Source of the DNA: a virus
Lineage: Duplodnaviria; Heunggongvirae; Uroviricota; Caudoviricetes
Virus record (IMG/VR): IMGVR_UViG_2740892422_000002
Coordinates: 1 to 35,451 of that record
Length of the DNA stretch: 35,451 bases
Strand: one strand, 5' to 3'
Shown here: positions 1 to 35,451 of the stretch, one piece after another
Position numbering within the stretch: position 1 is the stretch's first letter
How the letters are laid out: every line of letters begins with the position of its first letter
Notes under the pieces: generated by a model
Told to the model about the DNA's origin: nothing
The model's input: only the letters and a program-made list of their open reading frames with translations
The model's database searches: none
Position numbers and translations under genes: made by a program

Positions 1-135
1 ATTGATTTTTCGCGAAACCATTTGATCATATGACAAGATGTGTATCCACCTTAACTTAATGATTTTTACCAAAATCATTAGGGGATTCATCAGCGCGCAG
101 CTCCTTTGAACCATAGCCGACAATCCGGCCTTCAT
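1..135 (-). CDS. mom: mom-like DNA modification protein, N-terminal fragment truncated by the window edge; start codon uncertain (ATG at 133..135 or 88..90)
   Basis: Open frame from ATG 133..135 to position 1 on the minus strand, immediately downstream of com; assignment is by synteny only, protein not recognised by sequence. Confidence 0.4.
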
Positions 136-137
136 AC

Positions 138-323
138 TCAATAACGCAGGGTTTTGTCAGAATGCGTGATTTCTTCTCTTTTCCCACAATACAGCTCCGT
201 GGGATGCTCTTTGGCATTCGATATGACAATGTAACGTTTACAGCGAGGGCATTTAATTTCTATATGCTTAAAACCTCCTTTAAACAGTAATTTATTGCAG
301 TTTTTACAGCGAACAGAGTCCAT
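138..323 (-). CDS. com: Com-like zinc-finger translational activator of mom
   Basis: 61-aa product [61 protein letters not shown] with CxxC...CxxC zinc-finger; closely resembles Mu Com as recalled; AGGGGGAA RBS before ATG at 323. The ORF-track start at 350 is judged an upstream extension. Confidence 0.8.
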
Positions 324-446
324 GATTCCCCCTGTGTAATAACCAGACATGACCGCCCGGAGGGCTGGGGGTATTTAATCACAACCGATGCAAACCGACG
401 ATCGATATGATGTTATCGATCGTCATAAACTATACAAACTGATTAT
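324..446 (-). promoter_or_regulatory. com-mom upstream regulatory region, candidate C-dependent late promoter, with Dam-site palindrome (arms 397..407 and 414..424)
   Basis: Intergenic between the tail-fiber assembly gene stop (447) and com; perfect 11-bp inverted repeat GACGATCGATA/TATCGATCGTC with 6-bp spacer; GATC at 400..403 and 418..421. Confidence 0.5.
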
Positions 447-1022
447 TTAATCACCGACAGTTAACGCTCTCACCTCGTCCAGTATGGACAGCCGGGAAAG
501 CTGCTCCTTCATTTCACGCTGGCGCTGATAAATCTCGTCATTGCGATCGACCTGTGCCTGCGCCATTGCTGTCGCCAGTTCTTCCAGTTCAGACATCGAC
601 AGTTTCACCTGTTGATTATCGGCATCACCCCACGCAAGGGTGGTTCGTGCCGTATCGGATTTCGCCGCCATTACTACCGGATAAAGACGGGCCATTGAGT
701 CGGGGCCAGCATTCCAGGTACGACCGTTCCATTCGAACGTGAACGGCTGCGCTTCCTGTTCTGCACGCCAGGCGTTGATTTGCTGTTTTTTGGCATCTTT
801 TGCCGCTGCGATAAGTTCCGGCGTGACGGTGAACGGGGCGATTTCGCCCCATTTGCCGCTCTGTAACTCTTCCCAGATGCGCTGGCCTGTTGTTGCGGTA
901 TCGTCCTGCATGGCGGTATACGGGACAAATTCCGTTTCACCTTCAAATAGCACCTCGCAGTCAACCGCACCATTTTCGAGATAATGCGCGTATCTGATGC
1001 CCTTTACCGCTCTGATTTTCAT
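447..1022 (-). CDS. tail fiber assembly protein (Tfa-type chaperone) for the long fiber
   Basis: 191-aa ORF immediately downstream of the long tail-fiber gene; size, position and C-terminal region typical of lambda/P2-type fiber assembly chaperones. Confidence 0.65.
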   Translation of the reverse strand: MKIRAVKGIRYAHYLENGAVDCEVLFEGETEFVPYTAMQDDTATTGQRIWEELQSGKWGEIAPFTVTPELIAAAKDAKKQQINAWRAEQEAQPFTFEWNGRTWNAGPDSMARLYPVVMAAKSDTARTTLAWGDADNQQVKLSMSELEELATAMAQAQVDRNDEIYQRQREMKEQLSRLSILDEVRALTVGD

Positions 1023-1036
1023 GTTCTATCTCCTTG

Positions 1037-4000
1037 TTACTCAATGCGCACGAACAAACAGATAAAGCCTCTGTCGCCATACGTTCCACGATAACCTGAC
1101 AGGGCCTGATAACGACCGGGAAAACTGAATGCCCCAGCACCACCCGCCTTTACTGAAGGTGTGGAAACATATGTCCCGGAATTATTAATTGCACAGTCGA
1201 TAGCCACAGGACCAAGTCGCGACCCCGCCACTACATCCCCAAGGCCAATTTTTATTTCCTTATCTCCTGCCGCTGTTCCCTGATAGACCGCGAGAATAAG
1301 AGAGCCAACTGCCGGATATTTGTAATATGAGGACGGGCCGTTGCCCGCCGTCCGGGACAGCAGGAAGGCCAGCGAATCGCCGTCGTAAATGACAGGGCTT
1401 ACTGTTGCATTCCAGTTGTTTCCACTCCAGCGATAAGTCAGGCGATGAATACTGTGCTCACCTTCGTAATACTGGTTAAAACACAGCAGCGTTTTGAATT
1501 TACGCGTTGTGTCCGATTCATCGTTATCAAAGGGCGACCACATCACATCAATGATGCCGTTAAATTTTGTGGTTCCTGCCAGTAGTGTGGAAGAATCCGC
1601 AATACTGACCGCATAACGCCCCGGGGTGACCTCTTTCAGCCACTCAGCAAAATCAGCCTGTCCATCAAATGCCAGTGCATCGGTGCTGGTAAATGCCTGA
1701 CCGAACCCATGCATACCAGACAGTGCCAGCCTGCCCGGTGTACGGTCGCGGATATCGCTCTGGGGTTCCATCGTCGCAGCCGCTTTCAGTTCAAGCTCCG
1801 TGCGCATGGCCTCAGACGTGTCCAGCGCCAGTAATGCGCGGGCTTTTTCTGACAGCTGTGCCAGTAAAACCCGGCCCTCTGCACTGAAATAAGGCAGTGT
1901 GTTTTCTTCCGGTGTTATCTGGCTGACAGCCGTTAACATGTCATTAAGCGGCTGCTTACCTGCCAGTGCATTAGTGACCGTTGTCGCAAAGTTCGGGTCA
2001 TTACCCAGCGCCGCTGCCAGCTCGTTCAGCGTGTCGAGGGCTTCCGGTGATGAGCCAACCAGCGCGGCAAGCAGTTTGCGGACAAACTCCGCATTGGCGA
2101 TTTCATTACCAGCTGCATCATCTGGCGGTGTTGGCGTTGTCGGCGTTCCGGTCAGTGCCGGGCTTTTCAGCGGTGCGCGGGTTTCAATCAGCGCCCGGAG
2201 TGAAGCCTCGTTGACTTTCAGGTTTTCCCAGCCAACCAGATAACCATCTCCGGCATTCCAGTAGCGATTGTAATAAATGTGGCCGTTAATACCGTAAAAA
2301 ATAATGATTTTAGCCACATATGCCGGATTGGGGTTGGTTTGAGGCTCCGGCCAGATAATTTCAACGGTACCATTGAACAGCACGCCCTGTATTACCGCAT
2401 TTGTATCTGCATAAACGGCATAGCGACCGGGTTTTGCCGTTTTTACCCAGCGGAGAAAATCGGTCTCTGTTTTAAACTCGGTTCTGTCGCCGCTGGAAAA
2501 TACTTTCCCGAATCCAAACATGCCGGGAATCGCCAGACGGCCTTCGGTGCGGTCGTAAATATTCTCCTGTGCATCCTTCTGTGCTGCATTGCCAAGTTGT
2601 GGCGTCAGATTCGTCCAGGTGACCGGGGCGGAGATATTATCGCCACGAACGGTCATAAGAATCCGTCCGTCTTTTCCAAAAAACAGAACCAGCTTTGTTG
2701 CTGTCTGGCTGGTTTTGTCGTCCCAGCCATTATCCAGCCAGATAATTTCTGTTATTCCGGTCGTCTCTTCCGTTTGTGTGGAAAAGGTGTAATACCGTCC
2801 CGGGTGCAGGTTATGCGCACTTTTGGCTATGGTCGCCATATCGCGGGCAATAATTGAACTTGCTCCGGCGTCCGTCATTCCGTAACCAAATGCACCTGGT
2901 AGCGCAACACGGCCTTCCGTGCTGTCGTAAAGGTCTGTCTGAATGTCCTTTACCGCCGCGCTTTTCAGCTCAAGCTCCGTGCGCATGGCTTCCACTGTGG
3001 CCTGTGCCAGCAGTGACCGGGCTTTTTCTGACAGCGGAGACAGTGAAGCATTCCCGTCCTGATTAAAGCACAGAAGATTATCTGCCCGTTCTTCCAGATT
3101 ACTGATTGCGGTTAACACGTCACTGAGTGGTTGTTTACCCGCCAGCGCGTTCATGATTGTTGTCGCAAACTCCGGGTCATTGCCCAGCGCCGCTGCCAGC
3201 TCGTTCAGTGTGTCCAGGGCTTCCGGTGACGAGTCAACCAGTGCGGCGAGCAGTTTGCGGACAAATGCCGCGTTCGCGGTTTCCAGACCGACTGCATCGT
3301 CCGGTGGGGTTGGTGTGGTTGGCGTACCCGTGAACGCCGGGCTGTCCAGCGGCGCTTTTGTTTTCGTCTCGTCCATGACGGCTTTGACAGCCTTTGGTGT
3401 GGCGGCCAGTTCTTCGCTGTCGTTGTCTGTATCACTACAGAGTTGCACCAGACCTTTTTGCGTCGTGCTGGCGTTGGTTCCTTTCAGGTCATCGACTATC
3501 CGTTGCGCCTCGTCCCTGTGCTGTTTCGCGTTCTGCTCGCTTTTTGCTGCCGCTTCGGCGCTGGCTTTTGCCTCGCCGGTCAGCGTTGCAGCATCAGCAA
3601 GTTTATCGACCGCTTTCTGGACTATCGCGTCAGCATCCTTGACAGCCTGTTCTGCGCGGGCGGCATTCTGGTTTGTTTCAGAGGCCAGCTCTTCAGCTTT
3701 CTGCACATTACCCGCAATTTCTTCTGCATCCTGCTGTATTTCCCCGGCGAGCGCTTCTGTATCCTGGCGGGCCTGTTCAGCAGCGGTGGCGTGCTCTCCT
3801 GCTTTTTCTGCGCTTTGCTGCGCCTGTTGCGCCAGCTCTTCGAATTTCTTCAGGGCTTCCGGGCGCAGGTCAATATCGGTTGCGCCCAGAAAATCATTCA
3901 GCGAACCGTCTGTCGAATCTTCATAAACGCGAATGACACCGATTTCTGAAAGGCGCTGTGTGCTTTGTGTCAGGCGAACGCTGTACACACCCGGCAGAAC

Positions 4001-4150
4001 GGGGAAGTCGTACTCCCCGCTCTGTGTGGTGACGTGGCTGAAAACACCTTTCAGAATCCCTGCGCGGTTGTGCAGGGAGGTCAGTGTAATGGTTGCGCCG
4101 CCAAGCGGTTCTCCCGTGGGCGTTTTAATCACACCTTTAAGCTGCGGCAT
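1037..4150 (-). CDS. long tail fiber protein (P2 gpH / lambda Stf-like, mosaic, with internal module duplication)
   Basis: 1037-aa ORF; contains twice the conserved fiber motif ...SPA(F/L)TGTPTTPTPPDDA...FVRKLLAALV.SSPEALDTLNELAAALGNDP.FATT..NALAGKQP; N-terminus resembles side-tail-fiber N-domains. Confidence 0.85.
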   Translation of the reverse strand: MPQLKGVIKTPTGEPLGGATITLTSLHNRAGILKGVFSHVTTQSGEYDFPVLPGVYSVRLTQSTQRLSEIGVIRVYEDSTDGSLNDFLGATDIDLRPEALKKFEELAQQAQQSAEKAGEHATAAEQARQDTEALAGEIQQDAEEIAGNVQKAEELASETNQNAARAEQAVKDADAIVQKAVDKLADAATLTGEAKASAEAAAKSEQNAKQHRDEAQRIVDDLKGTNASTTQKGLVQLCSDTDNDSEELAATPKAVKAVMDETKTKAPLDSPAFTGTPTTPTPPDDAVGLETANAAFVRKLLAALVDSSPEALDTLNELAAALGNDPEFATTIMNALAGKQPLSDVLTAISNLEERADNLLCFNQDGNASLSPLSEKARSLLAQATVEAMRTELELKSAAVKDIQTDLYDSTEGRVALPGAFGYGMTDAGASSIIARDMATIAKSAHNLHPGRYYTFSTQTEETTGITEIIWLDNGWDDKTSQTATKLVLFFGKDGRILMTVRGDNISAPVTWTNLTPQLGNAAQKDAQENIYDRTEGRLAIPGMFGFGKVFSSGDRTEFKTETDFLRWVKTAKPGRYAVYADTNAVIQGVLFNGTVEIIWPEPQTNPNPAYVAKIIIFYGINGHIYYNRYWNAGDGYLVGWENLKVNEASLRALIETRAPLKSPALTGTPTTPTPPDDAAGNEIANAEFVRKLLAALVGSSPEALDTLNELAAALGNDPNFATTVTNALAGKQPLNDMLTAVSQITPEENTLPYFSAEGRVLLAQLSEKARALLALDTSEAMRTELELKAAATMEPQSDIRDRTPGRLALSGMHGFGQAFTSTDALAFDGQADFAEWLKEVTPGRYAVSIADSSTLLAGTTKFNGIIDVMWSPFDNDESDTTRKFKTLLCFNQYYEGEHSIHRLTYRWSGNNWNATVSPVIYDGDSLAFLLSRTAGNGPSSYYKYPAVGSLILAVYQGTAAGDKEIKIGLGDVVAGSRLGPVAIDCAINNSGTYVSTPSVKAGGAGAFSFPGRYQALSGYRGTYGDRGFICLFVRIE
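1780..2200. repeat. intragenic direct repeat copy 1 (~0.4 kb, roughly 80-85% identical to 2958..3375 by eye)
   Basis: Near-identical strings, e.g. TTGTCGCAAA.TTCGGGTCATT.CCCAGCGCCGCTGCCAGCTCGTTCAG and CAAGCTCCGTGCGCATGGC, in both copies; boundaries approximate. Confidence 0.7.
2958..3375. repeat. intragenic direct repeat copy 2 (partner of 1780..2200)
   Basis: Same as copy 1; offset about 1.18 kb, inside the long tail-fiber gene. Confidence 0.7.
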
Positions 4151-4667
4151 CGGGACGCTCCGGCCAGTTGATGGAATTAAAGGAGGCTTCGTCAGTAACG
4201 GTGCTTAAATCCAGTGCCTTTACCGCTTTGATATATGCCATCCACTGCGTAAGACGGGCTTTATCATCGTCGCTGATGGTGCCCAGCTCCAGCTCGGTTT
4301 TCCAGTCGGAGGTGATGTCCTTCGCTTCATTCAGCAGGCGCTGACGTTGTTTTTCTGCCAGTTGCGAATAATCAACAGGAACAGGCAGCACTTCGCCATC
4401 TTTGTAATACCAGCTGACTTCAATGCCAAAACCTTCCGGCAGTTCATCCACTTCCACAATGGTGAAGCCAGCCGGATAAAGACGGGACACGTCTTCCGCC
4501 ATTGAATAAATCACGCCGGTTTCCGGGTGAATACACAATTTGTATTTCTTCGTGAATTTATCCAGTGATTCATAAAAATCTTGTCCGTCTTCACTGCGGA
4601 AATACTGAATGTTTTCACCGTAAGGCATTTCTTCCGGGTAATAACGCGTGACGTTTCTGAGTTCCAT
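4137..4667 (-). CDS. tail fiber assembly protein (Tfa-type chaperone) for the upstream 259-aa fiber
   Basis: 176-aa product from ATG at 4667 preceded by TAAGGAG RBS; follows the 259-aa fiber gene. The ORF-track start at 4703 is judged an extension. Confidence 0.65.
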   Translation of the reverse strand: MELRNVTRYYPEEMPYGENIQYFRSEDGQDFYESLDKFTKKYKLCIHPETGVIYSMAEDVSRLYPAGFTIVEVDELPEGFGIEVSWYYKDGEVLPVPVDYSQLAEKQRQRLLNEAKDITSDWKTELELGTISDDDKARLTQWMAYIKAVKALDLSTVTDEASFNSINWPERPDAAA

Positions 4668-4681
4668 TATTTTCTCCTTAA

Positions 4682-5461
4682 TTAACCAGAGATAGTGCGC
4701 CATGCGCCACTAATATAAATTTGCACAGGTTTATACTTGATGAACTCCATTTTTTCGCCGCCATCAACAAAGGTGACCACGCAGCCTGTCGGAGCCTGAT
4801 ATCCACCCTGAACCTGCGCCCCCAACTGAACATTCTGAACGTACCGGGCATCGGCTGTTGACTGACTCATTCCTGCAGGAATCGTGATATCGCTGGTGCC
4901 ATCAAATGGCACATTGTTAATCCTGCGGGCCGTCTGAAGTCGGGTTGCCGTTCCGGCGTTGCCGCTGATGTTGCTGATGGTGATATCCGAAGACAGGGCC
5001 ATGCCGTTGACCCTGCGGGTATTCGGTACAGCACTATTAGCTTTATTTACCGTTTCACGTAATGAAAGTGCTTCGATAATTTCACCGGCTGTGTTTTTCC
5101 CGAGAATACTGCGCACAAAAGCACTGAGCGGCGTTAATGCCATTGTGTCTTCGCCCGTAAAATACGGGAACGTATTATTCTGACCGGTTAATCCGGCAAT
5201 AGCTCCGGCTGAACCACTGTTCGTAATAAACAGTTTTTTCAGCGCCGTCATAATCTGGTTGGTGGTATTTTTATCCGGTTTGATATTTGCCTGCCGGAGA
5301 ATTTCCAGCAGTTCAGACTGAATAATATTAAACCAGTCCGGCCCCGGATAAGTGGGCGGAATACCATTCCCGCCTTCGGTGAAATAAAGCGTTGTTTTGC
5401 TTAATTCAGCCGCGACAGGTGGCATTACCGGCACCCCCGTCGGATTATCCACATGAAACAT
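4682..5461 (-). CDS. tail fiber protein (shorter fiber, S-like position)
   Basis: 259-aa ORF between the baseplate cluster and a Tfa gene; internal segment ...AGLTGQNNTFPYFTGEDTMALTPLSAFVRSIL... resembles tail-fiber shaft motifs. Confidence 0.55.
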   Translation of the reverse strand: MFHVDNPTGVPVMPPVAAELSKTTLYFTEGGNGIPPTYPGPDWFNIIQSELLEILRQANIKPDKNTTNQIMTALKKLFITNSGSAGAIAGLTGQNNTFPYFTGEDTMALTPLSAFVRSILGKNTAGEIIEALSLRETVNKANSAVPNTRRVNGMALSSDITISNISGNAGTATRLQTARRINNVPFDGTSDITIPAGMSQSTADARYVQNVQLGAQVQGGYQAPTGCVVTFVDGGEKMEFIKYKPVQIYISGAWRTISG

Positions 5462-5464
5462 AAA

Positions 5465-6049
5465 TTATTCTCCGGTGTAATAATATTCATATTCCGTGCC
5501 CGCCAGCCGGTAATGCTTCAGCAGGCATTCCAGCTCGCGGGTCCGTTCGCTGATTAATGGCGTCATGACGTCATCAATACAGGTAAACCGCCCGGCATCT
5601 TTGTCCGGGACTTCCACTTTCAGCAGCCAGCGATACCGCGCCGGATGTAGCGGGTACATGCAGTCACGCAGGCAGTGGTGCGGCAGAACGGCCGTCACCT
5701 TAATAGTGAATCCCAGCGCCGCCGCAGCGGCTTCAATCTGCCAGGTGGCCAGCCCGCCTTTGCGGCGGTATTTCTCCACCACGGCCCGGCGGCGGGCTTC
5801 CGTTGTGGTGGCGGCAATTCCGCATTCCGGCAGCGCCAGATATTGCTCCCACTCCGGCAGCAACTGGAGCGTGGTTTCCGGTCGCATCTCCACATGCAGA
5901 CGCGAGGCGTCGTATTCAACGCGGGTTAAACGCTCTGCAAGCGCCCTTAAAAAACGGTTTAAATCCGCGTCGTTATCACGCGGCCATGCCTTACCCCGTG
6001 GCATGACCTGTTGCAGTGCGGTCAGCCATTCCGTCACGCTGTGAGCCAT
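5465..6049 (-). CDS. tail/baseplate protein (Mu gp48-like, DUF2313-type)
   Basis: 194-aa ORF directly after the baseplate-J gene; position and size match the Mu gp48 family. Confidence 0.55.
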   Translation of the reverse strand: MAHSVTEWLTALQQVMPRGKAWPRDNDADLNRFLRALAERLTRVEYDASRLHVEMRPETTLQLLPEWEQYLALPECGIAATTTEARRRAVVEKYRRKGGLATWQIEAAAAALGFTIKVTAVLPHHCLRDCMYPLHPARYRWLLKVEVPDKDAGRFTCIDDVMTPLISERTRELECLLKHYRLAGTEYEYYYTGE

Positions 6050-7110
6050 GTCACCTCCCCGATGGTGATAAGCTCATCCACATCACTGGTAGTGTCTTCC
6101 CCGATGTTCAGGAAGTAGTCCGCGATGCCGGACGTCATACCGATGGCCGTGCGCAGCGAGGACACCGGCAACATCTGACCGGGGGCCAGCGTTTTCTGTA
6201 ATGCGGTCAGGTTTGCCCGGACGGCGTTCCTGTTCGCCTGGCTGTCCGGTGTCAGACGGATGGACAGGTCGACTTTCTTCAGCCTGACCTGTACCGGCCA
6301 GACCTCGATGCCGCCCGGTTTTCCCACCATCACGCCGGTGGCCGGGTGTTTGTGGCAGAACAGATACTGCTCCATTGTCTTCAGGTCTTCGCGGGTCGGC
6401 ACAATGTCTTCACGGTCATCATAAAGCCATGCCAGCCCGACCGTGCCGGGGCCGTGCCACGCATCCCACGCCCACGCACGGCTGACGCCCGGCACTTCAC
6501 GCGCCCATATCACGTAGTCATGCAGCGCACCGCCCACCGGGGGATTGCGGCGCACATACAGCAGACGGTCCAGCAGCTCTGCGATGGATTCGATGTCTGC
6601 GCCACCGGTGATGCCACTTTCAGTCACCGCGCCTGTGCTGCCCGTTCCGGGTAGCGGGGATAACAGGGTCAGCACGGCACCGGCAGCAAGATTGCCTGCC
6701 ACACCGGCTTCTTCAGCCTGCACGATGACGGTGACCTCGCCGTCCTGTACCTCGCCGGATGTGAGTACCTGATACACCTGATTCGTGTCGGACTGCATCC
6801 GGGTTTCTGCCGGAATGGGGGACTGACTGGTGAAGGTCACCGGCCCGCTGGCAAAGGTTGCCTGCTTGCGGATAACCCCTTCATACGTTGCTGTTTTGAT
6901 AATGGTTTCATCATCAGACGTAGTGGACGGAATTATCTGGTCCTTGATCCAGCTCTGATGGTCGTATAAATCCCGGACCTGACTGCTGAACGACACGTTC
7001 AGCGCCTGCTCAACACTGACAGGCGGCAGCTTTTGCAGGCCGAGTTCATACGCAATATCTTTTTCGCCGTCGGCAATCAGTTTGCCCAGCGTGGGGATTT
7101 CATACGGCAT
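6034..7110 (-). CDS. baseplate J-like protein (Mu gp47-like)
   Basis: 358-aa ORF in the baseplate cluster; size and synteny. Confidence 0.75.
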   Translation of the reverse strand: MPYEIPTLGKLIADGEKDIAYELGLQKLPPVSVEQALNVSFSSQVRDLYDHQSWIKDQIIPSTTSDDETIIKTATYEGVIRKQATFASGPVTFTSQSPIPAETRMQSDTNQVYQVLTSGEVQDGEVTVIVQAEEAGVAGNLAAGAVLTLLSPLPGTGSTGAVTESGITGGADIESIAELLDRLLYVRRNPPVGGALHDYVIWAREVPGVSRAWAWDAWHGPGTVGLAWLYDDREDIVPTREDLKTMEQYLFCHKHPATGVMVGKPGGIEVWPVQVRLKKVDLSIRLTPDSQANRNAVRANLTALQKTLAPGQMLPVSSLRTAIGMTSGIADYFLNIGEDTTSDVDELITIGEVTWLTA

Positions 7111-8085: not shown

Positions 8086-9146
8086 GTGGCCACCGCCTTT
8101 GTTTTCTTCGTCTTCGCTTTCATTTCCGGCATATCCAGTGATTCAGGCGGAACCAGCGCCAGAACCGTCATCCGCCCCTGTGCGCCATCCGTCCAGGTCA
8201 CCCCGGATATCAGCCAGGTGGTTTTCAGGTTCTGAATGCTGTCGTCGATATCGACAAGGCGGTTGGTCTGCCACAGCGGGCCGCTGTCGCCCTGTTCGCG
8301 CCAGCCTGCCACCGTGATTTCCGTCGTGCGGGATTCCCCCAGCATCCGGGCTTTGTACCATTCCCCGCGAATGCTGGCCCCGCCCACGGTCAGGCTGTCT
8401 TCATTGACCAGAATGCGCGGGCGGTAACGGTTAATTTCCGGGTCTTCGGTGATGTACTGGCGACCACCCACCATCGAGGCAGGCTGGCTGTCCCACAGTT
8501 TGCCACCGGCACTGGTGGTGCCCTTGATGATGTACTGGCTGTTACGCTCCCGCCAGCTGAAGCGCCCACGGGCAGCGAGGATATTTTTCCCCAGCACCAG
8601 TGACACACCCGCGCGAACGGAAGAGGCGCGGGTGATAATCAGGTTACCTGCGCCGTCAGACGTCAGCAGAACGCCGCGCTGTTTTGCCAGCCGGTCGAGC
8701 AGTTCAAAGCCCGTTTCACCCTGTTCCAGAACGACGGACGCAAACGCCTCCCCGGTCGGGGTTTCCGTGATGACGGTTATCCCGAACGGGCGGCAGACAT
8801 CAGCCGCCACCTGTTCAAGCCGCACGCCTTTCCATTTCCCGGATGAATGCACCACAGAGCAGTCCACCAGGTCACCGGTTTTGTCGCGCCCCATGACGCG
8901 GATCTCCACGTTATCTGCGTCATAGCTGGGGATAAAATCATCAATATACCCCGTCAGCACGGTATCCGCGCCCAGCCTGACCGTGCAGGGTTGCCCCTCA
9001 CGAATCACGCGCGGTGCCGCCGCTGACCAGCGGGTTGTCACACTGAGATCAAACTCACCGGCAATCGCCTTCAGGGAACGGCTGATGGACATTTCCGTCC
9101 AGCCTTCCCACAGTTTGCCGTCAACGGTAAGAATCACGGATTCCAT
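8076..9146 (-). CDS. baseplate hub/tail protein (Mu P, P2 gpD-like)
   Basis: 356-aa ORF following the DNA-circularisation N gene; size and order typical of Mu P. Confidence 0.7.
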   Translation of the reverse strand: MESVILTVDGKLWEGWTEMSISRSLKAIAGEFDLSVTTRWSAAAPRVIREGQPCTVRLGADTVLTGYIDDFIPSYDADNVEIRVMGRDKTGDLVDCSVVHSSGKWKGVRLEQVAADVCRPFGITVITETPTGEAFASVVLEQGETGFELLDRLAKQRGVLLTSDGAGNLIITRASSVRAGVSLVLGKNILAARGRFSWRERNSQYIIKGTTSAGGKLWDSQPASMVGGRQYITEDPEINRYRPRILVNEDSLTVGGASIRGEWYKARMLGESRTTEITVAGWREQGDSGPLWQTNRLVDIDDSIQNLKTTWLISGVTWTDGAQGRMTVLALVPPESLDMPEMKAKTKKTKAVATWD

Positions 9147-26283: not shown

Positions 26284-26338
26284 AAAAGCACCTGTGAAGC
26301 AGATTTAAACGTGGTCTGCTTCATGGTGCCGGAGGCAT

Positions 26339-26362
26339 AAAAAAAGCCGGATTTACCGGCTT
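26339..26362 (-). terminator. Rho-independent terminator-like hairpin with U-tract (copy A of a duplicated element)
   Basis: Minus strand AAGCCGG-TAAAT-CCGGCTT followed by T-run; lies between the secreted-protein gene stop (26385) and the endolysin start (26283). Confidence 0.6.
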
Positions 26363-26384
26363 CATTGAATATAAGGTTATTGGT

Positions 26385-26882
26385 TCAGTTAACTTTACGG
26401 GCAGAACACGTAGTCTTCATTACTGAACGTTCAATTTTTATCTTCCAGCCATTTACTGTTTTTTCGACAGGATCATCTTCAGCTTGCTTTAAATTTTTAA
26501 CTTGCATGAAATTCAGCGGGGCTGGGGTATCATCGTCCCATGATGTCGGGCGAACATAATCAGGGACAACAAAAGGCTCAAAAACAGTTTCACATAAAGC
26601 AGACGTCATTTGAGCGAACTCGTCGCTATCGGGGCGAACCGGTCCTGTAACATACTGCATTTTTATGTTGATTTCGTTATCTCGCACAGACGTCTTTAAA
26701 TCCTGATATACACCTAAGTTAAATCCTTTAAACTCAGCAATGGCAGCGTCACCTTTACCGTACCAGTCGGTATAGTCAACGGATGTTTTTTTCTGAAAAA
26801 CATCTTTGACTTTTTGCTGGAATGTATCCGCCGCTTGTACAGTAGTAACAGTTAGTAAAAGAATAAGGGGAAGATATTTCAT
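26385..26882 (-). CDS. secreted/periplasmic protein of unknown function (AT-rich moron)
   Basis: 165-aa ORF with N-terminal signal peptide MKYLPLILLLTVTTVQA|AD; markedly AT-rich relative to flanking phage genes. Confidence 0.7.
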   Translation of the reverse strand: MKYLPLILLLTVTTVQAADTFQQKVKDVFQKKTSVDYTDWYGKGDAAIAEFKGFNLGVYQDLKTSVRDNEINIKMQYVTGPVRPDSDEFAQMTSALCETVFEPFVVPDYVRPTSWDDDTPAPLNFMQVKNLKQAEDDPVEKTVNGWKIKIERSVMKTTCSARKVN

Positions 26883-27280
26883 TGTTCGTCCTTAAATAGT
26901 TGCATTTGATATTTTCCACGCTCCAGTCGGCGCATTCTTTTGATGGCCTGATATACCGTTTTGTATGTCACTTTGTAACGCTGCACCAGCTCCGCTACGT
27001 TTTTCCCATCAAAATCACGCCAGATGCGCATGTCTCTGATAAGATTTTCCAGTATTTTCCCTTTCGGAACATATACCTGAATCCCACCGATATGATTGCA
27101 AATCGCCACTACCAGCTCAAGGGAGTGGGCAGGGTTAACTCCAAGCCTTATCAGCTCTTGTCGCAACAGAGCATTCAGCTCAGCCAGTAAAGATGGAAAT
27201 CCCGATTTTTCCTGAACATCATCAAAATATTCAAGGATACTGTCGTCCTGATAATCACCAAATAAATCCTGCTCTTTCAT
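26879..27280 (-). CDS. mor: Mor/C-family transcriptional activator
   Basis: 133-aa ORF with acidic N-terminus and C-terminal ...AHSLELVVAICNHIGGIQVYVPKG...YKTVYQAIKRMRR... resembling Mu Mor/C; located directly after the gemA-like gene. Confidence 0.7.
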   Translation of the reverse strand: MKEQDLFGDYQDDSILEYFDDVQEKSGFPSLLAELNALLRQELIRLGVNPAHSLELVVAICNHIGGIQVYVPKGKILENLIRDMRIWRDFDGKNVAELVQRYKVTYKTVYQAIKRMRRLERGKYQMQLFKDEQ

Positions 27281-27828
27281 AGAACTATTCTCCCGCTGTT
27301 TCTGGCGCGGGCATACGCACTGGTCAGTGCATCATATCCGCGCAGTTCCCGCCCGGTTTCGCTCACAGGTAAAGGCACGCCGTGTCGGGCAAAGGCTTCC
27401 CGAATGCAGCGCATATGCCACTGCTTGAGCGTTTCGAGCACAACCTGCAACGATTCCCCATGACACCAGGCCAGCGTGGAAACACCCTGACCACCATTAC
27501 GTCTGGCCGTCAGACGTTCAACGTATTTGTCCAGCGCGGCGTCGCTGATATCGGAGACGAAACCATCAAGAAACATCTGCTGCCAGATTTTATAAATCTT
27601 CTCGCGCGGTGTGACATGCCCCTTAAAGCGACGGCGGGGATGTTTTTTCTGCTTTTTAAAACCGCGCTCTTTCATGGCATCGAGCACTTGTTCCAGTTGT
27701 GCAACAGACAGCTCGCGGCAACTGGTTTTGCCCGTGCACTGCACCAGAAAAGCTCGGTAAGTGTCATCGTCGAGTTGCAACTCCCGACGGGCAACATGAA
27801 TTAATTTAATCAGGGATGTGCGGCTCAT
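27277..27828 (-). CDS. gemA: GemA-like early protein
   Basis: 183-aa ORF immediately upstream of mor, matching Mu gemA in position and size. Confidence 0.6.
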   Translation of the reverse strand: MSRTSLIKLIHVARRELQLDDDTYRAFLVQCTGKTSCRELSVAQLEQVLDAMKERGFKKQKKHPRRRFKGHVTPREKIYKIWQQMFLDGFVSDISDAALDKYVERLTARRNGGQGVSTLAWCHGESLQVVLETLKQWHMRCIREAFARHGVPLPVSETGRELRGYDALTSAYARARNSGRIVL

Positions 27829-28141
27829 TATGTCCCCCGGATTTAAAAATTAATTCAGTGTTGAATAGCTCTTTACTCATTCGCTGTAGCACATCGAGGG
27901 CGGCAACTGCCGCCACTTTATCCTGACTGGCAATGATTCCCCGCAACTCTTCGATAATCCATGCAGGGCTTAATGATTCAGCAATCATCGTGCGCTTTTC
28001 TGAAATTAAATTTTCTCTGGCCTGCTCATAGTGTTGGTATACGACATTATCCAGAAAATAATTTACCTCTTGTTCTGACATGCCACTGGAAATTAAGGTT
28101 GCAGCCATTAAATCAGCATCAGTAATCATCTGTATTTTCAT
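27806..28141 (-). CDS. hypothetical early protein (AT-rich accessory region)
   Basis: 111-aa acidic ORF between gam and gemA. Confidence 0.5.
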   Translation of the reverse strand: MKIQMITDADLMAATLISSGMSEQEVNYFLDNVVYQHYEQARENLISEKRTMIAESLSPAWIIEELRGIIASQDKVAAVAALDVLQRMSKELFNTELIFKSGGHNEPHIPD

Positions 28142-28316
28142 TTCTTAATACCTCTTCGCAATAAAAGATTTCATTGGGATAACGTTTTTGTATGCGCTCA
28201 ATCACCTGCATACATGCCTGCTCTGTGGGCCAGATTTTTTCTGTTGCCGGGATAGCATCACAGGCATCACTCCCGCAGGTGCCAACCAGCAGGACAAAGC
28301 CAATTGACTTAATCAT
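28119..28316 (-). CDS. small secreted or lipoprotein-like protein
   Basis: 65-aa product from ATG at 28316 (MIKSIGFVLLVGTCGSDACD...): N-terminal hydrophobic segment followed by Cys, with four further Cys. Confidence 0.45.
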   Translation of the reverse strand: MIKSIGFVLLVGTCGSDACDAIPATEKIWPTEQACMQVIERIQKRYPNEIFYCEEVLRNENTDDY

Positions 28317-28851
28317 GTTCACTGACTTCCTGTGTTGCTGCCGGAGCTGGTGAATAATCAAGAATGAGATAGCGCATGACGTGGTCGGTGATATTCCAGC
28401 CACTGGAACCACAAATAAAGCGCCCCAGCCGGATATCGATATACGCCATCACAAAACGGGGCATCCCCTGTTTGCACATCTCGTCATCCACTTCAGCAAC
28501 GATGTAAACCGACTCGCAGGTCAGTACGCCTGTCGCAAATTCTTTTGCCAGTGCCGGAATGGCATTGCCTTCCAGCCAGGGCAAAGAGCGGCGGAACGCG
28601 CACCATTGAGCATTATCAACAGCGGGGTGTTCCGTTGTTGCGTTTCGTCTTACTGGCGGCGTTGGACGAGGGCGCGGAACGTCATAAAATCCGTTACATT
28701 CAGTGAGAACTCCGGCATCAACCGCATCACGCAGGAAATACACCATTGACGAGGGCAGCATATTCATTTTTTCAGCCAGAACCCCGCAGGTCAGACGCCC
28801 GTAAGCCCGTAATAATGTGCTGACACCATTCAGAACTTTTGCATCAACCAT
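28309..28851 (-). CDS. hypothetical early protein, possible winged-helix N-domain
   Basis: 180-aa ORF; first gene after gam and a 98-bp spacer. Confidence 0.5.
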   Translation of the reverse strand: MVDAKVLNGVSTLLRAYGRLTCGVLAEKMNMLPSSMVYFLRDAVDAGVLTECNGFYDVPRPRPTPPVRRNATTEHPAVDNAQWCAFRRSLPWLEGNAIPALAKEFATGVLTCESVYIVAEVDDEMCKQGMPRFVMAYIDIRLGRFICGSSGWNITDHVMRYLILDYSPAPAATQEVSEHD

Positions 28852-28949
28852 TTTTTATTCCTCAGTAATCTGTTTCAGGCGCGAGCAATCCCCTGACGCA
28901 TCGCGCCATAATTAAAAGAAAGTGAACTAATTAAATATTAATGGTGGTA

Positions 28950-29474
28950 TTAAATACCGGCTTCCTGTTCAAACGGAATAATAGAAAAATCTTCAATGCC
29001 TGATTTAACTGTAATTCCGGCGACACCTGCGACTGCTTTCGGTTCCAGTAAAATCGCTTCCTTGTTGATTTCCTGTTTCGTGCGAATAAAGCGTTGCAGG
29101 CCAAGACGCTCCAGCGTTTCCATCACCGCATCCACACCGCGAATACTTACCGATGGTGGGCGCTGACGCCATGACACATCGCCGGTTACCAGGTTCGCCG
29201 TCTTCACCTTGCCGCCGTTCGTCAGTTCGTCGCGGTTCGCTTCACACCATCCCTGAACGCCTTTTGAAAGGGTTTCAATACTGGTTTTAAGGGGCGCAAT
29301 CTGTGAGGCGTATTTCTCAGTAATTTCAGCGATAGCGTCATTCATTTCCGTTTCAAGTCGTGCCGCTTCGCGTTGCAGGTCACCAATCCGGCGAATATCA
29401 CACACCACGGCATCGCGGGATTGCGGAACATAAGCTGCTGCGGCACTCTTGATTCGTTTTGCTGGTTTAGCCAT
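28950..29474 (-). CDS. gam: host-nuclease inhibitor Gam (Ku-like DNA end-binding protein)
   Basis: 174-aa ORF MAKPAKRIKSAAAAYVPQSRDAV... with coiled-coil; matches Mu Gam in length and sequence as recalled. Confidence 0.85.
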   Translation of the reverse strand: MAKPAKRIKSAAAAYVPQSRDAVVCDIRRIGDLQREAARLETEMNDAIAEITEKYASQIAPLKTSIETLSKGVQGWCEANRDELTNGGKVKTANLVTGDVSWRQRPPSVSIRGVDAVMETLERLGLQRFIRTKQEINKEAILLEPKAVAGVAGITVKSGIEDFSIIPFEQEAGI

Positions 29475-29494
29475 ATAAATAAAGCTCCTGTTAA

Positions 29495-29785
29495 TTAATA
29501 TTCGCTGTATACAATGCTGGATACAGCACGATTGCTTAATTCCATCTTTTGGGCAATGACATGAATAGCCAGCCCTTCTTTATAAAGTTCACGACACAAA
29601 TATTTGTCGTGCTCACTGACCCGGTATGCACACAACGATATTCCGTGCCTTCTGGCATGTGCCTGTAGGGCGGTTGGGGCAACGTTCAGTTTTTTCGCCA
29701 TTTCCTCGACGGTCATTTTCCCGACACTGGCTTCGATAAATTCCCGGTCTTCGCGTGACCATCTTTTGCGAGGGATTATCATCAT
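29495..29785 (-). CDS. small HTH-containing DNA-binding protein
   Basis: 96-aa product from ATG at 29785 with GGGAAGGAGG RBS; HTH-like segment TVEEMAKKLNVAPTALQAHARRHGIS. Confidence 0.5.
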   Translation of the reverse strand: MMIIPRKRWSREDREFIEASVGKMTVEEMAKKLNVAPTALQAHARRHGISLCAYRVSEHDKYLCRELYKEGLAIHVIAQKMELSNRAVSSIVYSEY

Positions 29786-29801
29786 GCCTCCTTCCCTGAA
29801 A

Positions 29802-30071
29802 TTAATGTTTGGCTGCATCCGGGTTATACCGGAATAACTCGCCTTCGGCTTCCAGCCCAAGTTCTCTGGCTGACTTCAACAACTCCTGGGTTGCTTTTTC
29901 AATAATTTCAGGAGCCATGCTCTTGATAATGCCTGCCATCACGTCATGTGGTCCGATTTGCGCCTTAGGTGACTGTTCTTTCAGTTGCACACTCATTCCT
30001 ACAAAGAAACCTCCTTTTTTCTGAAACTCAACATCTTCCATGCGGTTAAATTCAAAGATTACTTTTGCCAT
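29802..30071 (-). CDS. hypothetical early protein
   Basis: 89-aa product from ATG at 30071 with GAGGAA RBS (MAKVIFEFNRMEDVEFQKKGG...). Confidence 0.5.
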   Translation of the reverse strand: MAKVIFEFNRMEDVEFQKKGGFFVGMSVQLKEQSPKAQIGPHDVMAGIIKSMAPEIIEKATQELLKSARELGLEAEGELFRYNPDAAKH

Positions 30072-30099
30072 TTTGTTATTCCTCACAAATAAGCCGTTA

Positions 30100-30327
30100 T
30101 TAACGCCAGATAATCTGGCAACCATTAAGGCGGGCCGTCCATACGGAACGGGCAACCCCTGATTTATGCTCCATAATCCTGACAGCGTTTCTGACCAGCT
30201 CCGGTGGTGGGCAGGTGATTTCAAGTACCGGGCGGGCTACGCCCAGCCAGGATTCGTTGACGTGGCTGCCGTGCTCCTGTAACCAGGTCTTTACTTCCGT
30301 TGCCATTTTGATATTCCGTGACATCAT
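30100..30327 (-). CDS. kil: Kil-like small protein (by position after B)
   Basis: 75-aa product from ATG at 30327 with GGAGAG RBS, starting 13 nt after the B stop; assignment by synteny with Mu. Confidence 0.45.
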
Positions 30328-30340
30328 GATTTCGCTCTCC

Positions 30341-31279
30341 TTACGTGCGCAGCAGGGTTGAAATATCAACGTCGAGGTCTAATTCACGGAAAGCCTGACG
30401 CAGATAATCTTCATTAACACGTTCACCTTTGCCGTGGGCGGTCATGGCCGCAAGGCGCAGCGAGTGGTTCAGGATGCGAAGCGCACCTGGTTTTTGCGCA
30501 ATCTGCTGTAATAATTCCCGCTCGTTTTCGCCGGTAATTTGCCAGGCATCCGCAATGGCCTTTACATCATCAATTTTGGTTTTATTGATTGCCGTCCGTT
30601 TGGCAATACGGGAAAACAGTCGGGCAAATTCAACCGTTCTGTTACCACCGGTCATGTTTGAATAAACGCGGTGATTCCCCATCAGAACAAGGCCAATACG
30701 GGCGGATTCCTGCAACAGGCGGAGTTCTTCCAGAACTTCAGCGCCAAGATGATCAGCTTCGTCGATAATGACCAGCCCCTGCGTACCTTCAAGGCGGCGT
30801 CGCAAAGCGCGGGAGAGCGGCCCTTTGCGGCGCGGTGCGTCATTCATTCCCAGTTCATACGCCAGTTCAGTGAGACATTCCAGAACACTGGCGCAGGATG
30901 GGGTAATGGTGATCATCCAGACATTGTTATTGGTGCGACGAAATTCGCGGGCTGCTTCAGTTTTTCCCACACCTGGATTACCGCAGATAACAGAAATACT
31001 TTCAGTCAGGCTGGCAAAACGCATACTCGTCCAGATTTGGCGTGCTGTTCTGGTTTCCACAAAACGTGGTGGTTCTGGCAGCTCTGCGGCACGGTGATAG
31101 TTCTCCAGCCAGCGTTCCAGCGTCTGCGCAACACGTTCATTGTCGCCGTTGTACTTGTTATTCACGAATGCGCTTAACGTTCCTGCGGCCACGCCAGACT
31201 CGCGTGCAATTTGTGCATAAGTCGCTTTTTCACTTTCTACAAGCGTGCGCAGTCCTGCGCGAATATCGGAAATATTCAT
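30341..31279 (-). CDS. B: transposition ATPase / target DNA activator MuB
   Basis: 312-aa ORF with Walker A GNPGVGKT and Walker B IIDEADHL; near-identical to Mu B as recalled. Confidence 0.92.
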
Positions 31280-31317
31280 CTGAATAACCTCGTAATTAAA
31301 TTTTGTTTAAACGTTAA

Positions 31318-33309
31318 TTAAATGGCTTTTTTACGTCTGTTCTGTTCCAGAATATCCAGCGAATGATTCAGATATTCATCACGATCAGTTTCATATTCAT
31401 CATCGGGTTCCTGGTATTTCACCTGCACCGTGTTACCGGAAGGCCGGAAAATACCAACAACCCTTGATTCTGGCGCTGCTGGTTCGGCTATCTGCGGCAG
31501 CAGTTCAGCAATTTCCAGCGCGTCCATTTGTTTCTGCGCCTTAATGGCTGCTTTAGTTGCAGATTTCAGTTGTTTCTGGCGGCGGCGATATTCACGGCCT
31601 GCCGCAGCATCATTAAACGCAACAGGTGCCAGACATTCCGCTTCACAGATAAACCGACCGTCCAGGGTGTAGCAATAAACCGTGCTGTGTAGCTGTTGTG
31701 GATCAAATCTGACCACAACTTTTTTCACTCCGGCATTCATTAACGCCATGTTGTAATAAACGTTTTTCGCGCCTTTAAGGGAGCCGCCAACTTTAAGCGT
31801 AAACTCGCCTTTGCGTGAAACGTTCACCGCCTCGGCAGGCAGTAACAGCATCCGTTTTTGTTCTTCGGTTGGCTTACGCACAATCGTTCTGGCGTATTCA
31901 CGCTCGAAAACATCATCAAACGAGAGTTTGCCCCCGCACATTTCTGTTTCACGGCCTGTTCTGGCATTGAACATCGCCACACCTTCGGCAAGGGTTTTCA
32001 GAAACAGCTCTGCATCAACAGCGCGGTCGCCATAGTTATCAGGTTTTGCCTGCGGATTTGGCCCCGTATATGCGCCAGCCAGTGCCGGATGCTTATCAAC
32101 GTATTCCTCAAGCCCACCAACACCGAAAGCACGTTCAACAGGTTTTGCCTGGCCCCAGCCTTTACCGGCAACAACGCTTGTCCAGTGCATTTTCGCGCCC
32201 ATCAGTAAAAACAGTCCCTTTGGATCGTCCTCTTTTACCTTAAAGCGGTAACGATTGGGCGCGCCTCCCGTCAGCCATTTATTCGCTGCACCACGGGTGT
32301 TATCAATGGTGATGTGAAAATCCTCCGGGATACCGTAGCGAGTCACAACATCCATGAACGAGAGGCGAATTGAATCAATGTTCTCGCTCACATCGCAGCG
32401 CCAGCCCAGAATTTTTCGGGTTTTCACATCCTGCCAGAACCATGTTTTCGGGCGGATCACATCACCGTTAAACCAGCGTACAAAGACGTTATGCAGATAA
32501 CCGTCGCCGTTGATCCACTGCATGGCGTCCAGGTGTTCCACAGTTCGTTGCTGTGCCGGTATCAGATGCATCAGTGCATGTTCACCTTCACGGCAGGCAA
32601 CAACCATTGCCTCGTCCAGTTGCTGAATCCGGCGAAAGGCCGTGGCACGGGAGGGAATATTCCAGTCATGCTCACGTGCTGCCAGTTCCAGACGCTCATA
32701 ACATTTGCGAAAGGCGGGTTTTTCCGGTCGCAGATAATCTGCAATCAGAAACTGCCAGGCATCCTCGTCAAATTCACTTTTGTGAACGTTGCGACGGGAT
32801 GCACCACGGCCATCAACAAGCGCAGCCGCCCAGTCAGACTTCGCAAACTTCTGTACCTGGTAATATTTGTCCCGCAAAGTGGATGCGCTGACCTGGTAAT
32901 GTCCAGCAACGGTCGCAAATGCCGTTTTCGTTGAAATCCCCTGGTTCAGCATTTCGTCTGCAGCCTGAACCGCAGGCAACCATTTTTCAGCAAGTCTGCG
33001 CTGGGAATCGCTGGCGTTATCCCATTTGCTCCACAGTGCCTCACGATCATAATCATGGGCTTCCAGCGTGGGGCGGGCGATTTCAAAACGGCCCAGGCTT
33101 GTTTCAATCTCTCCTTGTCTAAGCAATAACGCCGCTTTCGCTTCAACAGGTAAAGAGTTAGCATTGTATTCAATTGCTTTACCTCCTTTGACACCTGCTC
33201 TAGTGCGGTTTTGCCATCCTTGCTTTTTAGCGACATAAATCACACCAGCTGATGTTTTCGGCAAGCCAGGAAGATTCGCACACTCTTTCGGTGACACCCA
33301 AAGTTCCAT
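31318..33309 (-). CDS. A: DDE transposase MuA
   Basis: 663-aa product from ATG at 33309 ([15 protein letters not shown]...), one nucleotide after the ner stop; matches Mu A. The ORF-track 685-aa version carries a spurious 22-aa N-terminal extension. Confidence 0.92.
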
Positions 33310-33310
33310 A

Positions 33311-33538
33311 TTATTCACCTGCTTGATATCGGCTAGGCCAGATGACTTCCGGTTTAGTTTCAAGGGCGTTAGCAATAATCTGTTCGCCCTTTGGCCAGTG
33401 CCGTTCTAGCGCATTAGCTAATGTTGTTGGCGCATAACCAAACTGCCGAGAAAGAGCTGATAAAGAGAGCTTTCTTTTCTTAAGTCCCGCAATCACATCA
33501 GCACGATGCCAATCACGGACCTTTTCGTTGGAACACAT
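33311..33538 (-). CDS. ner: Ner DNA-binding regulator (negative regulator of early transcription)
   Basis: 75-aa [55 protein letters not shown]...; matches Mu Ner. Confidence 0.9.
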
Positions 33539-34456: not shown

Positions 34457-34636
34457 GCAACTGCTTTTCGTATGTTTAATGAAACAAAAGCCATTTCTAA
34501 CAATCTTTCGCGTTTCAATGCTTAACGGCTAAAATTTGTTCTACAGGCTTGCAAGCCCCACCAAATCTAATCCCGTCAAATCCCGAATAATCCAATATCC
34601 TCCCGGTTTTTTTCGTACTTCTCGTGAATCAATACA
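34457..34636 (-). other. Mu left-end (attL) region with terminal MuA-binding sites; terminus at 34636
   Basis: Minus strand from 34636 reads TGTATTGATTCACGAGAAGTACGAAAAAAACCGGGAGGATATTGGATTATTCGGGATTTGACGGGATTAGATTTGG..., matching the Mu left end with a few substitutions. Confidence 0.85.
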
Positions 34637-35451
34637 CCGGTGATGAGCAGGTTGAGGTGCTGAAGGGCATCAGCCTCGATATTTATGCGGGTGAGATGGT
34701 CGCGATTGTTGGCGCTTCGGGTTCCGGTAAATCGACCCTGATGAATATTCTCGGCTGTCTGGATAAGGCCACCAGCGGCACCTATCGCGTCGCCGGTCAG
34801 GATGTTGCCACGCTGGACGCCGATGCGCTGGCGCAACTGCGCCGCGAGCATTTCGGCTTTATTTTCCAGCGTTACCATTTGCTTTCGCATTTAACCGCCG
34901 AGCAGAACGTTGAAGTACCCGCCGTCTATGCTGGTCTTGAGCGGAAACAGCGACTGCTTCGTGCCCAGGAGTTGCTGCAACGGCTGGGGCTGGAAGACCG
35001 TACAGAGTATTATCCGGCACAGCTTTCGGGTGGTCAGCAACAGCGCGTCAGCATCGCGCGGGCATTGATGAACGGTGGTCAGGTAATTCTTGCCGATGAA
35101 CCAACCGGCGCACTGGACAGCCATTCTGGCGAAGAGGTGATGGCGATCCTGCATCAGCTGCGCGATCGTGGGCATACGGTGATTATCGTCACCCACGATC
35201 CGCAGGTCGCTGCTCAGGCCGAGCGGGTGATCGAAATTCGCGACGGCGAAATTGTGCGCAATCCTCCCGCCATTGAAAAAGTGAATGTTACTGGCGGGAC
35301 GGAACCTGTTGTCAACACGGTGTCTGGCTGGCGGCAGTTTGTCAGCGGTTTTAACGAGGCGCTGACGATGGCATGGCGGGCGCTGGCAGCGAATAAAATG
35401 CGTACTTTACTGACCATGCTGGGGATTATTATCGGTATTGCGTCGGTGGTT
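34637..35451 (+). pseudogene. macB: macB (macrolide ABC transporter ATP-binding/permease), 3' portion only; gene interrupted by the prophage and running off the window end
   Basis: In-frame translation from 34639: [56 protein letters not shown]...[15 protein letters not shown]...[11 protein letters not shown]..., i.e. the ABC ATPase domain of E. coli MacB beginning around codon 18. Confidence 0.85.

Follow-up and report, generated by a model that had tools for sequence, protein, structure and literature searches.

The window (the whole stretch of 35,451 nucleotides that was analysed, IMG/VR record IMGVR_UViG_2740892422_000002) contains the greater part of a Mu-like transposable prophage, which runs in reverse orientation. 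A Mu-type left end lies at about 34636 (region about 34560-34636; reverse complement TGTATTGATTCAC...). Beyond it, positions 34637-35451 are host DNA with a macB-like ABC-transporter ATPase gene on the plus strand, indicating that this copy of the prophage is inserted in a macB-like gene. Four GATCs at 35145-35229 belong to the same host gene. The phage has a mosaic make-up. At 26300-33400 it has an early region with 89% identity to Mu that extends to Mu nt 8995, within mor, and positions 1-26300 belong to a late part unrelated to that of Mu, with a GH108 endolysin and no C gene. The phage has a single Mor/C-family ORF, and no C orthologue was found anywhere in the window. Despite the mosaic late region, Mom is 97% identical to the Mom of Mu_3F6.

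The com-mom pair occupies the first few hundred positions of the window, on the minus strand (Table 1). A second in-frame ATG of com lies upstream, at 350, but RefSeq uses the ATG at 323 for the identical gene. The outside end of an IS10 cuts mom after codon 41, so that mom must be dead in the genome of the window; intact Mom has 241 amino acids (L001), and the ETEC1732 prophage, otherwise identical and inserted in flhA, carries an intact 241-residue Mom. In R100, the sequence matching window positions 1-93 adjoins an IS4-family transposase. Rfam reports RNA-OUT within the IS10 end (1-48, plus strand, 56.9 bits), this being its only report, and no family at the palindrome described below. The IS10 end also has a GATC of its own at 24-27, which we take to be the well-known site of Dam control in the promoter region of the transposase; on that assumption, two unrelated Dam-sensing elements would lie less than 400 bp apart. 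On the other side of com lies a gene for tail-fibre assembly (DUF4376), and the window has no gin upstream of the palindrome.

Table 1. Features of the com-mom regulatory region and related genes in the window
Feature	Position	Strand	Remarks
IS10 outside end, interrupting mom	1-93	-	100% identical to IS10 of Tn10 on R100
mom, first 41 codons only	94-217	-	truncated by IS10 insertion
com, 61 aa zinc-ribbon translational activator of mom	138-323	-	identical to RefSeq WP_001372435.1; Pfam Zn_ribbon_Com, 2.5e-7
TATTAC, candidate -10 hexamer	336-341	-	weak inference, read from the sequence
ATACCCCC box, presumed activator site	367-374	-	occupies the place of the ATAACC(C/A)C element in the C-dependent late promoters of Mu
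CATC exactly where Mu has its third GATC	387-390	-	13 bp after site 2; Dam site lost
Predicted proximal OxyR half-site ATCGTCGGTTTGCAT	388-402	-	5/10 consensus, lowest of 15 lineages compared; starts from the A of the proximal GATC
Perfect palindrome GACGATCGATA-N6-TATCGATCGTC	397-424		inner core of the predicted operator
Proximal Dam site, homologue of Mu mom GATC site 2	400-403		18 bp from the distal site, as in Mu
Distal Dam site, homologue of Mu mom GATC site 1	418-421		
Predicted distal OxyR half-site ATAGTTTATGACGAT	419-433	-	8/10 consensus; starts from -12 of the distal GATC
DUF4376 tail-fibre assembly gene	447-1022	-	stop codon 22 nt upstream of the palindrome, same strand
Mor/C-family activator gene, the only one in the window	26879-27280	-	63% identical to Mu Mor

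An inverted-repeat search finds, between com and the tail-fibre gene, two arms of 11 nt each (397-407 and 414-424), 100% complementary and separated by a 6-nt spacer; the plus strand reads GACGATCGATA-tgatgt-TATCGATCGTC. The preliminary description had reported a perfect 11-bp palindrome with two GATCs upstream of com-mom, and this is indeed what the region contains, at a distance of 74-101 nt from the com ATG at 323. The window has two perfect inverted repeats whose arms measure 11 nt or more and whose loops do not exceed 10 nt, against a mean of 0.11 in 300 dinucleotide shuffles. The sole other one, at 12259-12287 (cagctgcc...ggcagctg), sits between a Gp41-like tail assembly chaperone gene (12318-12713) and a 603-residue ORF (10420-12231). 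GATC is depleted in the window, with 49 sites against 121 expected from dinucleotide shuffles, and the two sites of the palindrome stand at the edge of a stretch of 6.4 kb that is free of GATC (549-6945; tail-fibre and baseplate region). The methylome papers that mention Mu-like prophages contain nothing on these two GATCs.

Of 5,426 complete E. coli genomes, 49 contain a region of the window type. Comparison of 29 loci, representing 22 distinct sequences, reveals a block of about 46 bp, TTTGTATAG...GCATC, that is nearly invariant. The palindrome arms, both GATCs and the CATC are unchanged in all 22 variants, while spacer positions 2, 3 and 6 vary to give seven different spacers (e.g. ACATCA, ACATCG, GCATCA, CCATCA and CAATCG). 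The three nucleotides after GCATC are hypervariable. The upstream gene varies too, and homology starts at TTTGTATAG regardless of its identity. The conserved span thus fits a site of the size of an OxyR tetramer, rather than the 28-bp palindrome by itself. Among viral contigs, 26 contain an exact match to GATCGATA-N6-TATCGATC, and in 18 of these it lies upstream of com-mom; the other eight have no flanks in common and are taken to be chance matches of a 16-base pattern. A chance origin of the palindrome itself was rejected on three grounds, namely the shuffle counts, the conservation across variants and the contexts of the exact pattern.

In Mu, the mom regulatory region comprises a "region I" with three GATCs that is bound by OxyR (MomR) when unmethylated and lies upstream of the C-activated promoter Pmom. 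The region reads, in the direction of transcription, catATAGaaaacGACGATCGAatcaatcaaaTCGATCGgcaatacaGATCGATTATGCCCCAATAACCacac, and the corresponding stretch of the window reads gtATAGtttatGACGATCGATAacatcaTATCGATCGTCggtttgCATCggttgtgattaaATACCCCCagcc. Alignment with the Mu mom promoter region, proposed in the preliminary description as a check, shows that the two are colinear. They share GACGATCGA...TCGATCG, the CGATCG cores and the 18-bp spacing of the GATCs, with an ATAG 12 nt upstream of the distal GATC, an ATA(A/C)CC box whose first base is at offset 29, counted from the G of the proximal GATC (site 2), and the com-mom gene pair downstream. Across the site, 30 of 47 positions are identical. 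The palindrome is homologous in position and sequence to GATC sites 1 and 2 of Mu, which bears out the earlier suggestion that it is the equivalent of the methylation-sensing mom operator, insofar as this can be judged from sequence. Three GATCs within 43 bp control Mu mom, and OxyR binds the unmethylated promoter (Bolker & Kahmann 1989; Sun & Hattman 1996; Hattman & Sun 1997, as cited in PMC4461284, PMC7549136 and PMC2909390); the Mu footprint coordinates used in our comparison come from such secondary citations and from general knowledge.

There are nevertheless several differences between the two regions. Where Mu has its third GATC, the window reads CATC, as do all 22 distinct variants of the window type. 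The dyad of the window consists of 11 perfect base pairs with a 6-nt spacer, whereas that of Mu has 7 bp with a 10-nt spacer. The window phage has one Mor-like activator and no C. Finally, the window operator is intergenic and follows a tail-fibre assembly gene, whereas that of Mu is placed inside the 3' end of gin. In Mu_3F6 (L002, 1490-1545), the three GATCs and the C-binding dyad all fall within the last 17 or so codons of gin, and in Mu the gin stop codon TAA falls within TTATGCCCCAATAA. Being encoded inside gin, the Mu operator must evolve under a coding constraint from which the window lineage is free.

Other com-mom lineages were compared as well. An alignment query with Mom retrieved 80 viral contigs and a single-Mom genome scan added four more loci; a com gene was identified at 93 loci, whose upstream regions comprise 61 distinct sequences. 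Mu-type phages and L003, L005, L056, L057, L058 and L090 have three GATCs, with 18 or 19 bp between sites 1 and 2 and 13 bp between sites 2 and 3. In L055 and L060 sites 1 and 2 are 31 bp apart instead of 18, followed by the same 13 bp. Lineages of the L084 type (e.g. L084, L076 and L087) retain only the 13-bp pair of sites 2 and 3 and have AATT at site 1; conversely, the window type, L004 and L093 have only sites 1 and 2. The dyad may be kept with other flank bases, as in L005 (CACCGATCGAT-N9-ATCGATCGGTG) and L090 (TAGCGATCAATA-N6-TATCGATCGCTA). The box is found at offset 29 from the proximal GATC in 9 of 14 com-mom lineages (the window type, three of Mu type, L003, L004, L005, L055 and L056). 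These layouts and the box at its constant offset make the palindrome the local form of a widely conserved cassette. The preliminary description had also claimed a different, dyad-symmetric architecture read by a dimeric binder. This part is not supported, as Mu, eight other com-mom lineages and E. coli agn43 share the dyad core; the real differences from Mu are smaller and amount to CATC in place of the third GATC, flanks that extend the symmetry to 11 bp and the lack of gin upstream.

The ATACCCCC box is the presumed site of the activator. Mu C-dependent late promoters have ATAACCCC or ATAATCCC at the position of the box (PMC4461284). The motif ATAMCCC is enriched in the window phage (13 occurrences against 4.8 expected). 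An attempt to define the box from the other late promoters of the phage was dropped; the look-alikes ATACCCC(C)RGCCC (10182 and 26530) are located inside ORFs, and the intergenic regions of the phage yielded no shared motif for an activator box. A scan of positions 1-1200 found no sigma-70 promoter and no minus-strand terminator, and the best candidate for a -10 hexamer would leave a very short leader. The predicted transcription start is near 334.

OxyR binds a dyad-symmetric site as a dimer of dimers, with the dimer consensus ATAGxTxxxAxCTAT (PMC2909390). Scored against ATAGnTnnnAnCTAT, the two predicted half-sites of the window match at 8 and 5 positions, those of Mu at 7 and 6, and those of agn43 at 8 and 8. 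The ATAG of the distal half-site is found in the same register in Mu, L057, L058, L093 and agn43. The predicted tetramer site, in its extended form, is ATAG-N7-CGAT / N16 / ATCG-N7-GCAT, and both GATCs are embedded in it: the GAT of the distal one contributes to the CGAT arm, and the ATC of the proximal one starts the ATCG arm. The dyad axis of this predicted 46-bp site (433-388) coincides exactly with the centre of the palindrome. That OxyR binds such a site, and that the axis of the predicted one is the palindrome centre, is a further point against the claimed difference in architecture. However, the inner (ATA/TAT) and outer (GA/TC) flank symmetry lies outside the published OxyR consensus positions.

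The extended site scores 13/20, the joint maximum among 70,812 window positions. Because eight positions in the window reach this score, the motif match alone is not significant, and the argument for OxyR is based instead on homology, exact in register, to the OxyR/Dam sites of Mu and agn43, both characterised by experiment. A compact (N7) form of the OxyR consensus was also tried; it scores 12/20, below the window maximum of 13 and no better than background, and the extended geometry was adopted. The half-site starts are 31 bp apart in the window and 32 bp apart in agn43, L005 and L058. The extended geometry has been ascribed to reduced OxyR (PMC2909390), and the GATC coordinates of gtr would imply a half-site distance of about 32 bp as well.

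The agn43 (flu) region of E. coli K-12 reads ATAGAATAAAACGATCAATAtctatttTATCGATCGTTTATATCGATCG. Like the window, it has an ATAG at -12, the arrangement ATAG-N7-CGATC and inner ATA/TAT flanks, and its own GATCs are spaced at 19 + 13 bp; its flanks CGATCAATA...TATCGATCG follow a pattern in common with the window, CGATC(A/G)ATA...TATCGATCGT, and 31 of 47 positions of the site are identical. It differs from the window in possessing a third GATC and a second half-site that is strong (8/10), and it is a chromosomal (CP4-44) switch that is heritably ON or OFF; for mom, phase variation has never been demonstrated (PMC2909390). In Salmonella/P22 gtr and in opvAB, too, GATCs are found at the ends of OxyR half-sites and the spacing fits the reduced (extended) form of OxyR (PMC2909390). 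There, however, the GATCs form pairs 13 bp apart in one half-site (for gtr, PMC2909390), and the tetramer sites are alternative and overlapping, whereas the window has one GATC per predicted half-site and a single predicted tetramer site.

Taken together, the homology indicates that the palindrome is probably the centre of an OxyR repressor operator of about 46 bp (433-388, minus strand) that controls the com-mom promoter and is sensitive to Dam methylation. Most likely, this operator is a switch of an already understood kind, here with two Dam sites instead of three. By analogy with Mu, a tetramer of host OxyR would bind the two half-sites, ATAG-N7-CGAT and ATCG-N7-GCAT, with one GATC at the inner end of each and with its dyad axis on the palindrome centre. 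As long as the GATCs are unmethylated or hemimethylated, OxyR would stay bound and keep the promoter off even in the presence of the phage activator, repressing without displacing it. Full Dam methylation of both GATCs would exclude OxyR, and the single Mor-family activator, bound at the adjacent ATACCCCC box, could at that point switch on com and mom, a toxic gene for DNA modification, at a late stage of the lytic cycle. The activator step is an assumption, in view of a phage without a C orthologue. The steps of the mechanism are known for Mu (Bolker & Kahmann 1989; Sun & Hattman 1996; Hattman & Sun 1997, as cited in PMC4461284, PMC7549136 and PMC2909390), and we infer by homology that they would apply to the window operator. 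Among the points against the OxyR reading are the poor match of the proximal half-site and the lack of a third GATC.

It is conceivable, though unlikely, that the palindrome acts as RNA instead of, or besides, serving as an operator. It would then form a hairpin where the transcript of the tail-fibre operon ends, functioning as a terminator, insulator or stabiliser against read-through into the toxic com-mom genes. The inverted repeat does follow the DUF4376 stop codon by only 22 nt on the same strand, and for a 71-nt RNA from the region the folding energy is -20.8 kcal/mol (z = -3.4), the stem having 12 bp. Moreover, hairpins are stronger where a tail gene lies directly upstream, -14.6 to -16.6 kcal/mol in the window, L003, L004 and L005 as against -5.9 to -11.1 kcal/mol in Mu-type phages with gin, and flank symmetry is achieved with different bases in L005 (CACC/GGTG), L090 (TAGC/GCTA) and L003 (AAT/ATT). 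The weaker symmetry in Mu can, however, be explained by the coding constraint of gin. No U tract follows the stem (GGUUUGCAUC), the terminator scan makes no call, and it is the sequence of the CGATCG cores that is conserved, without covariation. This element is also found inside the gin ORF in Mu and at agn43, where a hairpin role is inapplicable, and the L084 lineage is without the distal arm altogether. A secondary role in insulating mom from tail-operon read-through may still exist, given the stronger hairpins in lineages without gin upstream.

A related proposal is that the mom operator of this lineage has been remodelled into a two-GATC perfect dyad unlike that of Mu, either as the target of a methylation-sensitive dimer other than OxyR or as a dual element, DNA operator and RNA hairpin in one, that insulates mom. 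This, too, we regard as improbable. The first of these options, a different dimeric and methylation-sensitive protein of host or phage origin that would read the perfect dyad in place of OxyR, was also considered in its own right, and its chances are small. It would account for the perfect 11-bp dyad reaching beyond the OxyR consensus positions, for the loss of the third GATC and for the weakness (5/10) of the proximal OxyR half-site. Yet the site is colinear with the OxyR sites of Mu and agn43, including the outer ATAG, an element superfluous for a dimer that sits on the palindrome. Conservation extends over about 46 bp and not 28, and another binder would leave both the outer ATAG and GCATC unexplained; no candidate for such a binder was identified in the window.

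Mu C binds the dyad TTAT-N6-ATAA, a sequence that is present in the Mu region examined. Activators of the Mor/C family bind sites with dyad symmetry, and the idea that the palindrome is itself the target of the phage's activator draws on the GATA-N6-TATC that it contains and on the presence of only one Mor-family activator in the window. It is very improbable, in that colinearity with Mu assigns the activator to the ATACCCCC element at 374-367, some 40 nt further downstream, and would put the palindrome centre near -77 as against -43.5 (abutting the -35 region) for a Mor/C dyad. The half-sites are inverted in orientation relative to the C site, and the same GATC pair recurs at the chromosomal agn43 and in phages whose activators differ.

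If the palindrome is part of an OxyR operator, as we favour, the Dam/OxyR control module of the toxic mom gene would travel with com-mom as a conserved cassette of operator, activator box, com and mom, crossing mosaic Mu-like prophages of several enterobacterial genera. The geometry of the cassette is fixed (18/19 + 13 bp) and is shared with the chromosomal agn43 switch. Its natural variants, with sites 1 and 2 (window), sites 2 and 3 (L084 type) or a spacing of 31 bp (L055 and L060), amount to a ready-made series of mutants that could be used to ask which GATCs are needed by OxyR for sensing. The biology of the palindrome in the window would otherwise be as expected, and its target mom is already inactivated by IS10.

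Elsewhere in the window, a terminator-like hairpin, gaagccggtaaatccggc followed by a T run, occurs in two minus-strand copies (26284-26384 and 18567-18664), of which one immediately precedes the endolysin gene and the second lies in a different gap between genes. The endolysin-side copy is preceded by CCAATAACC, which resembles the end of the C site of Mu Pmom.
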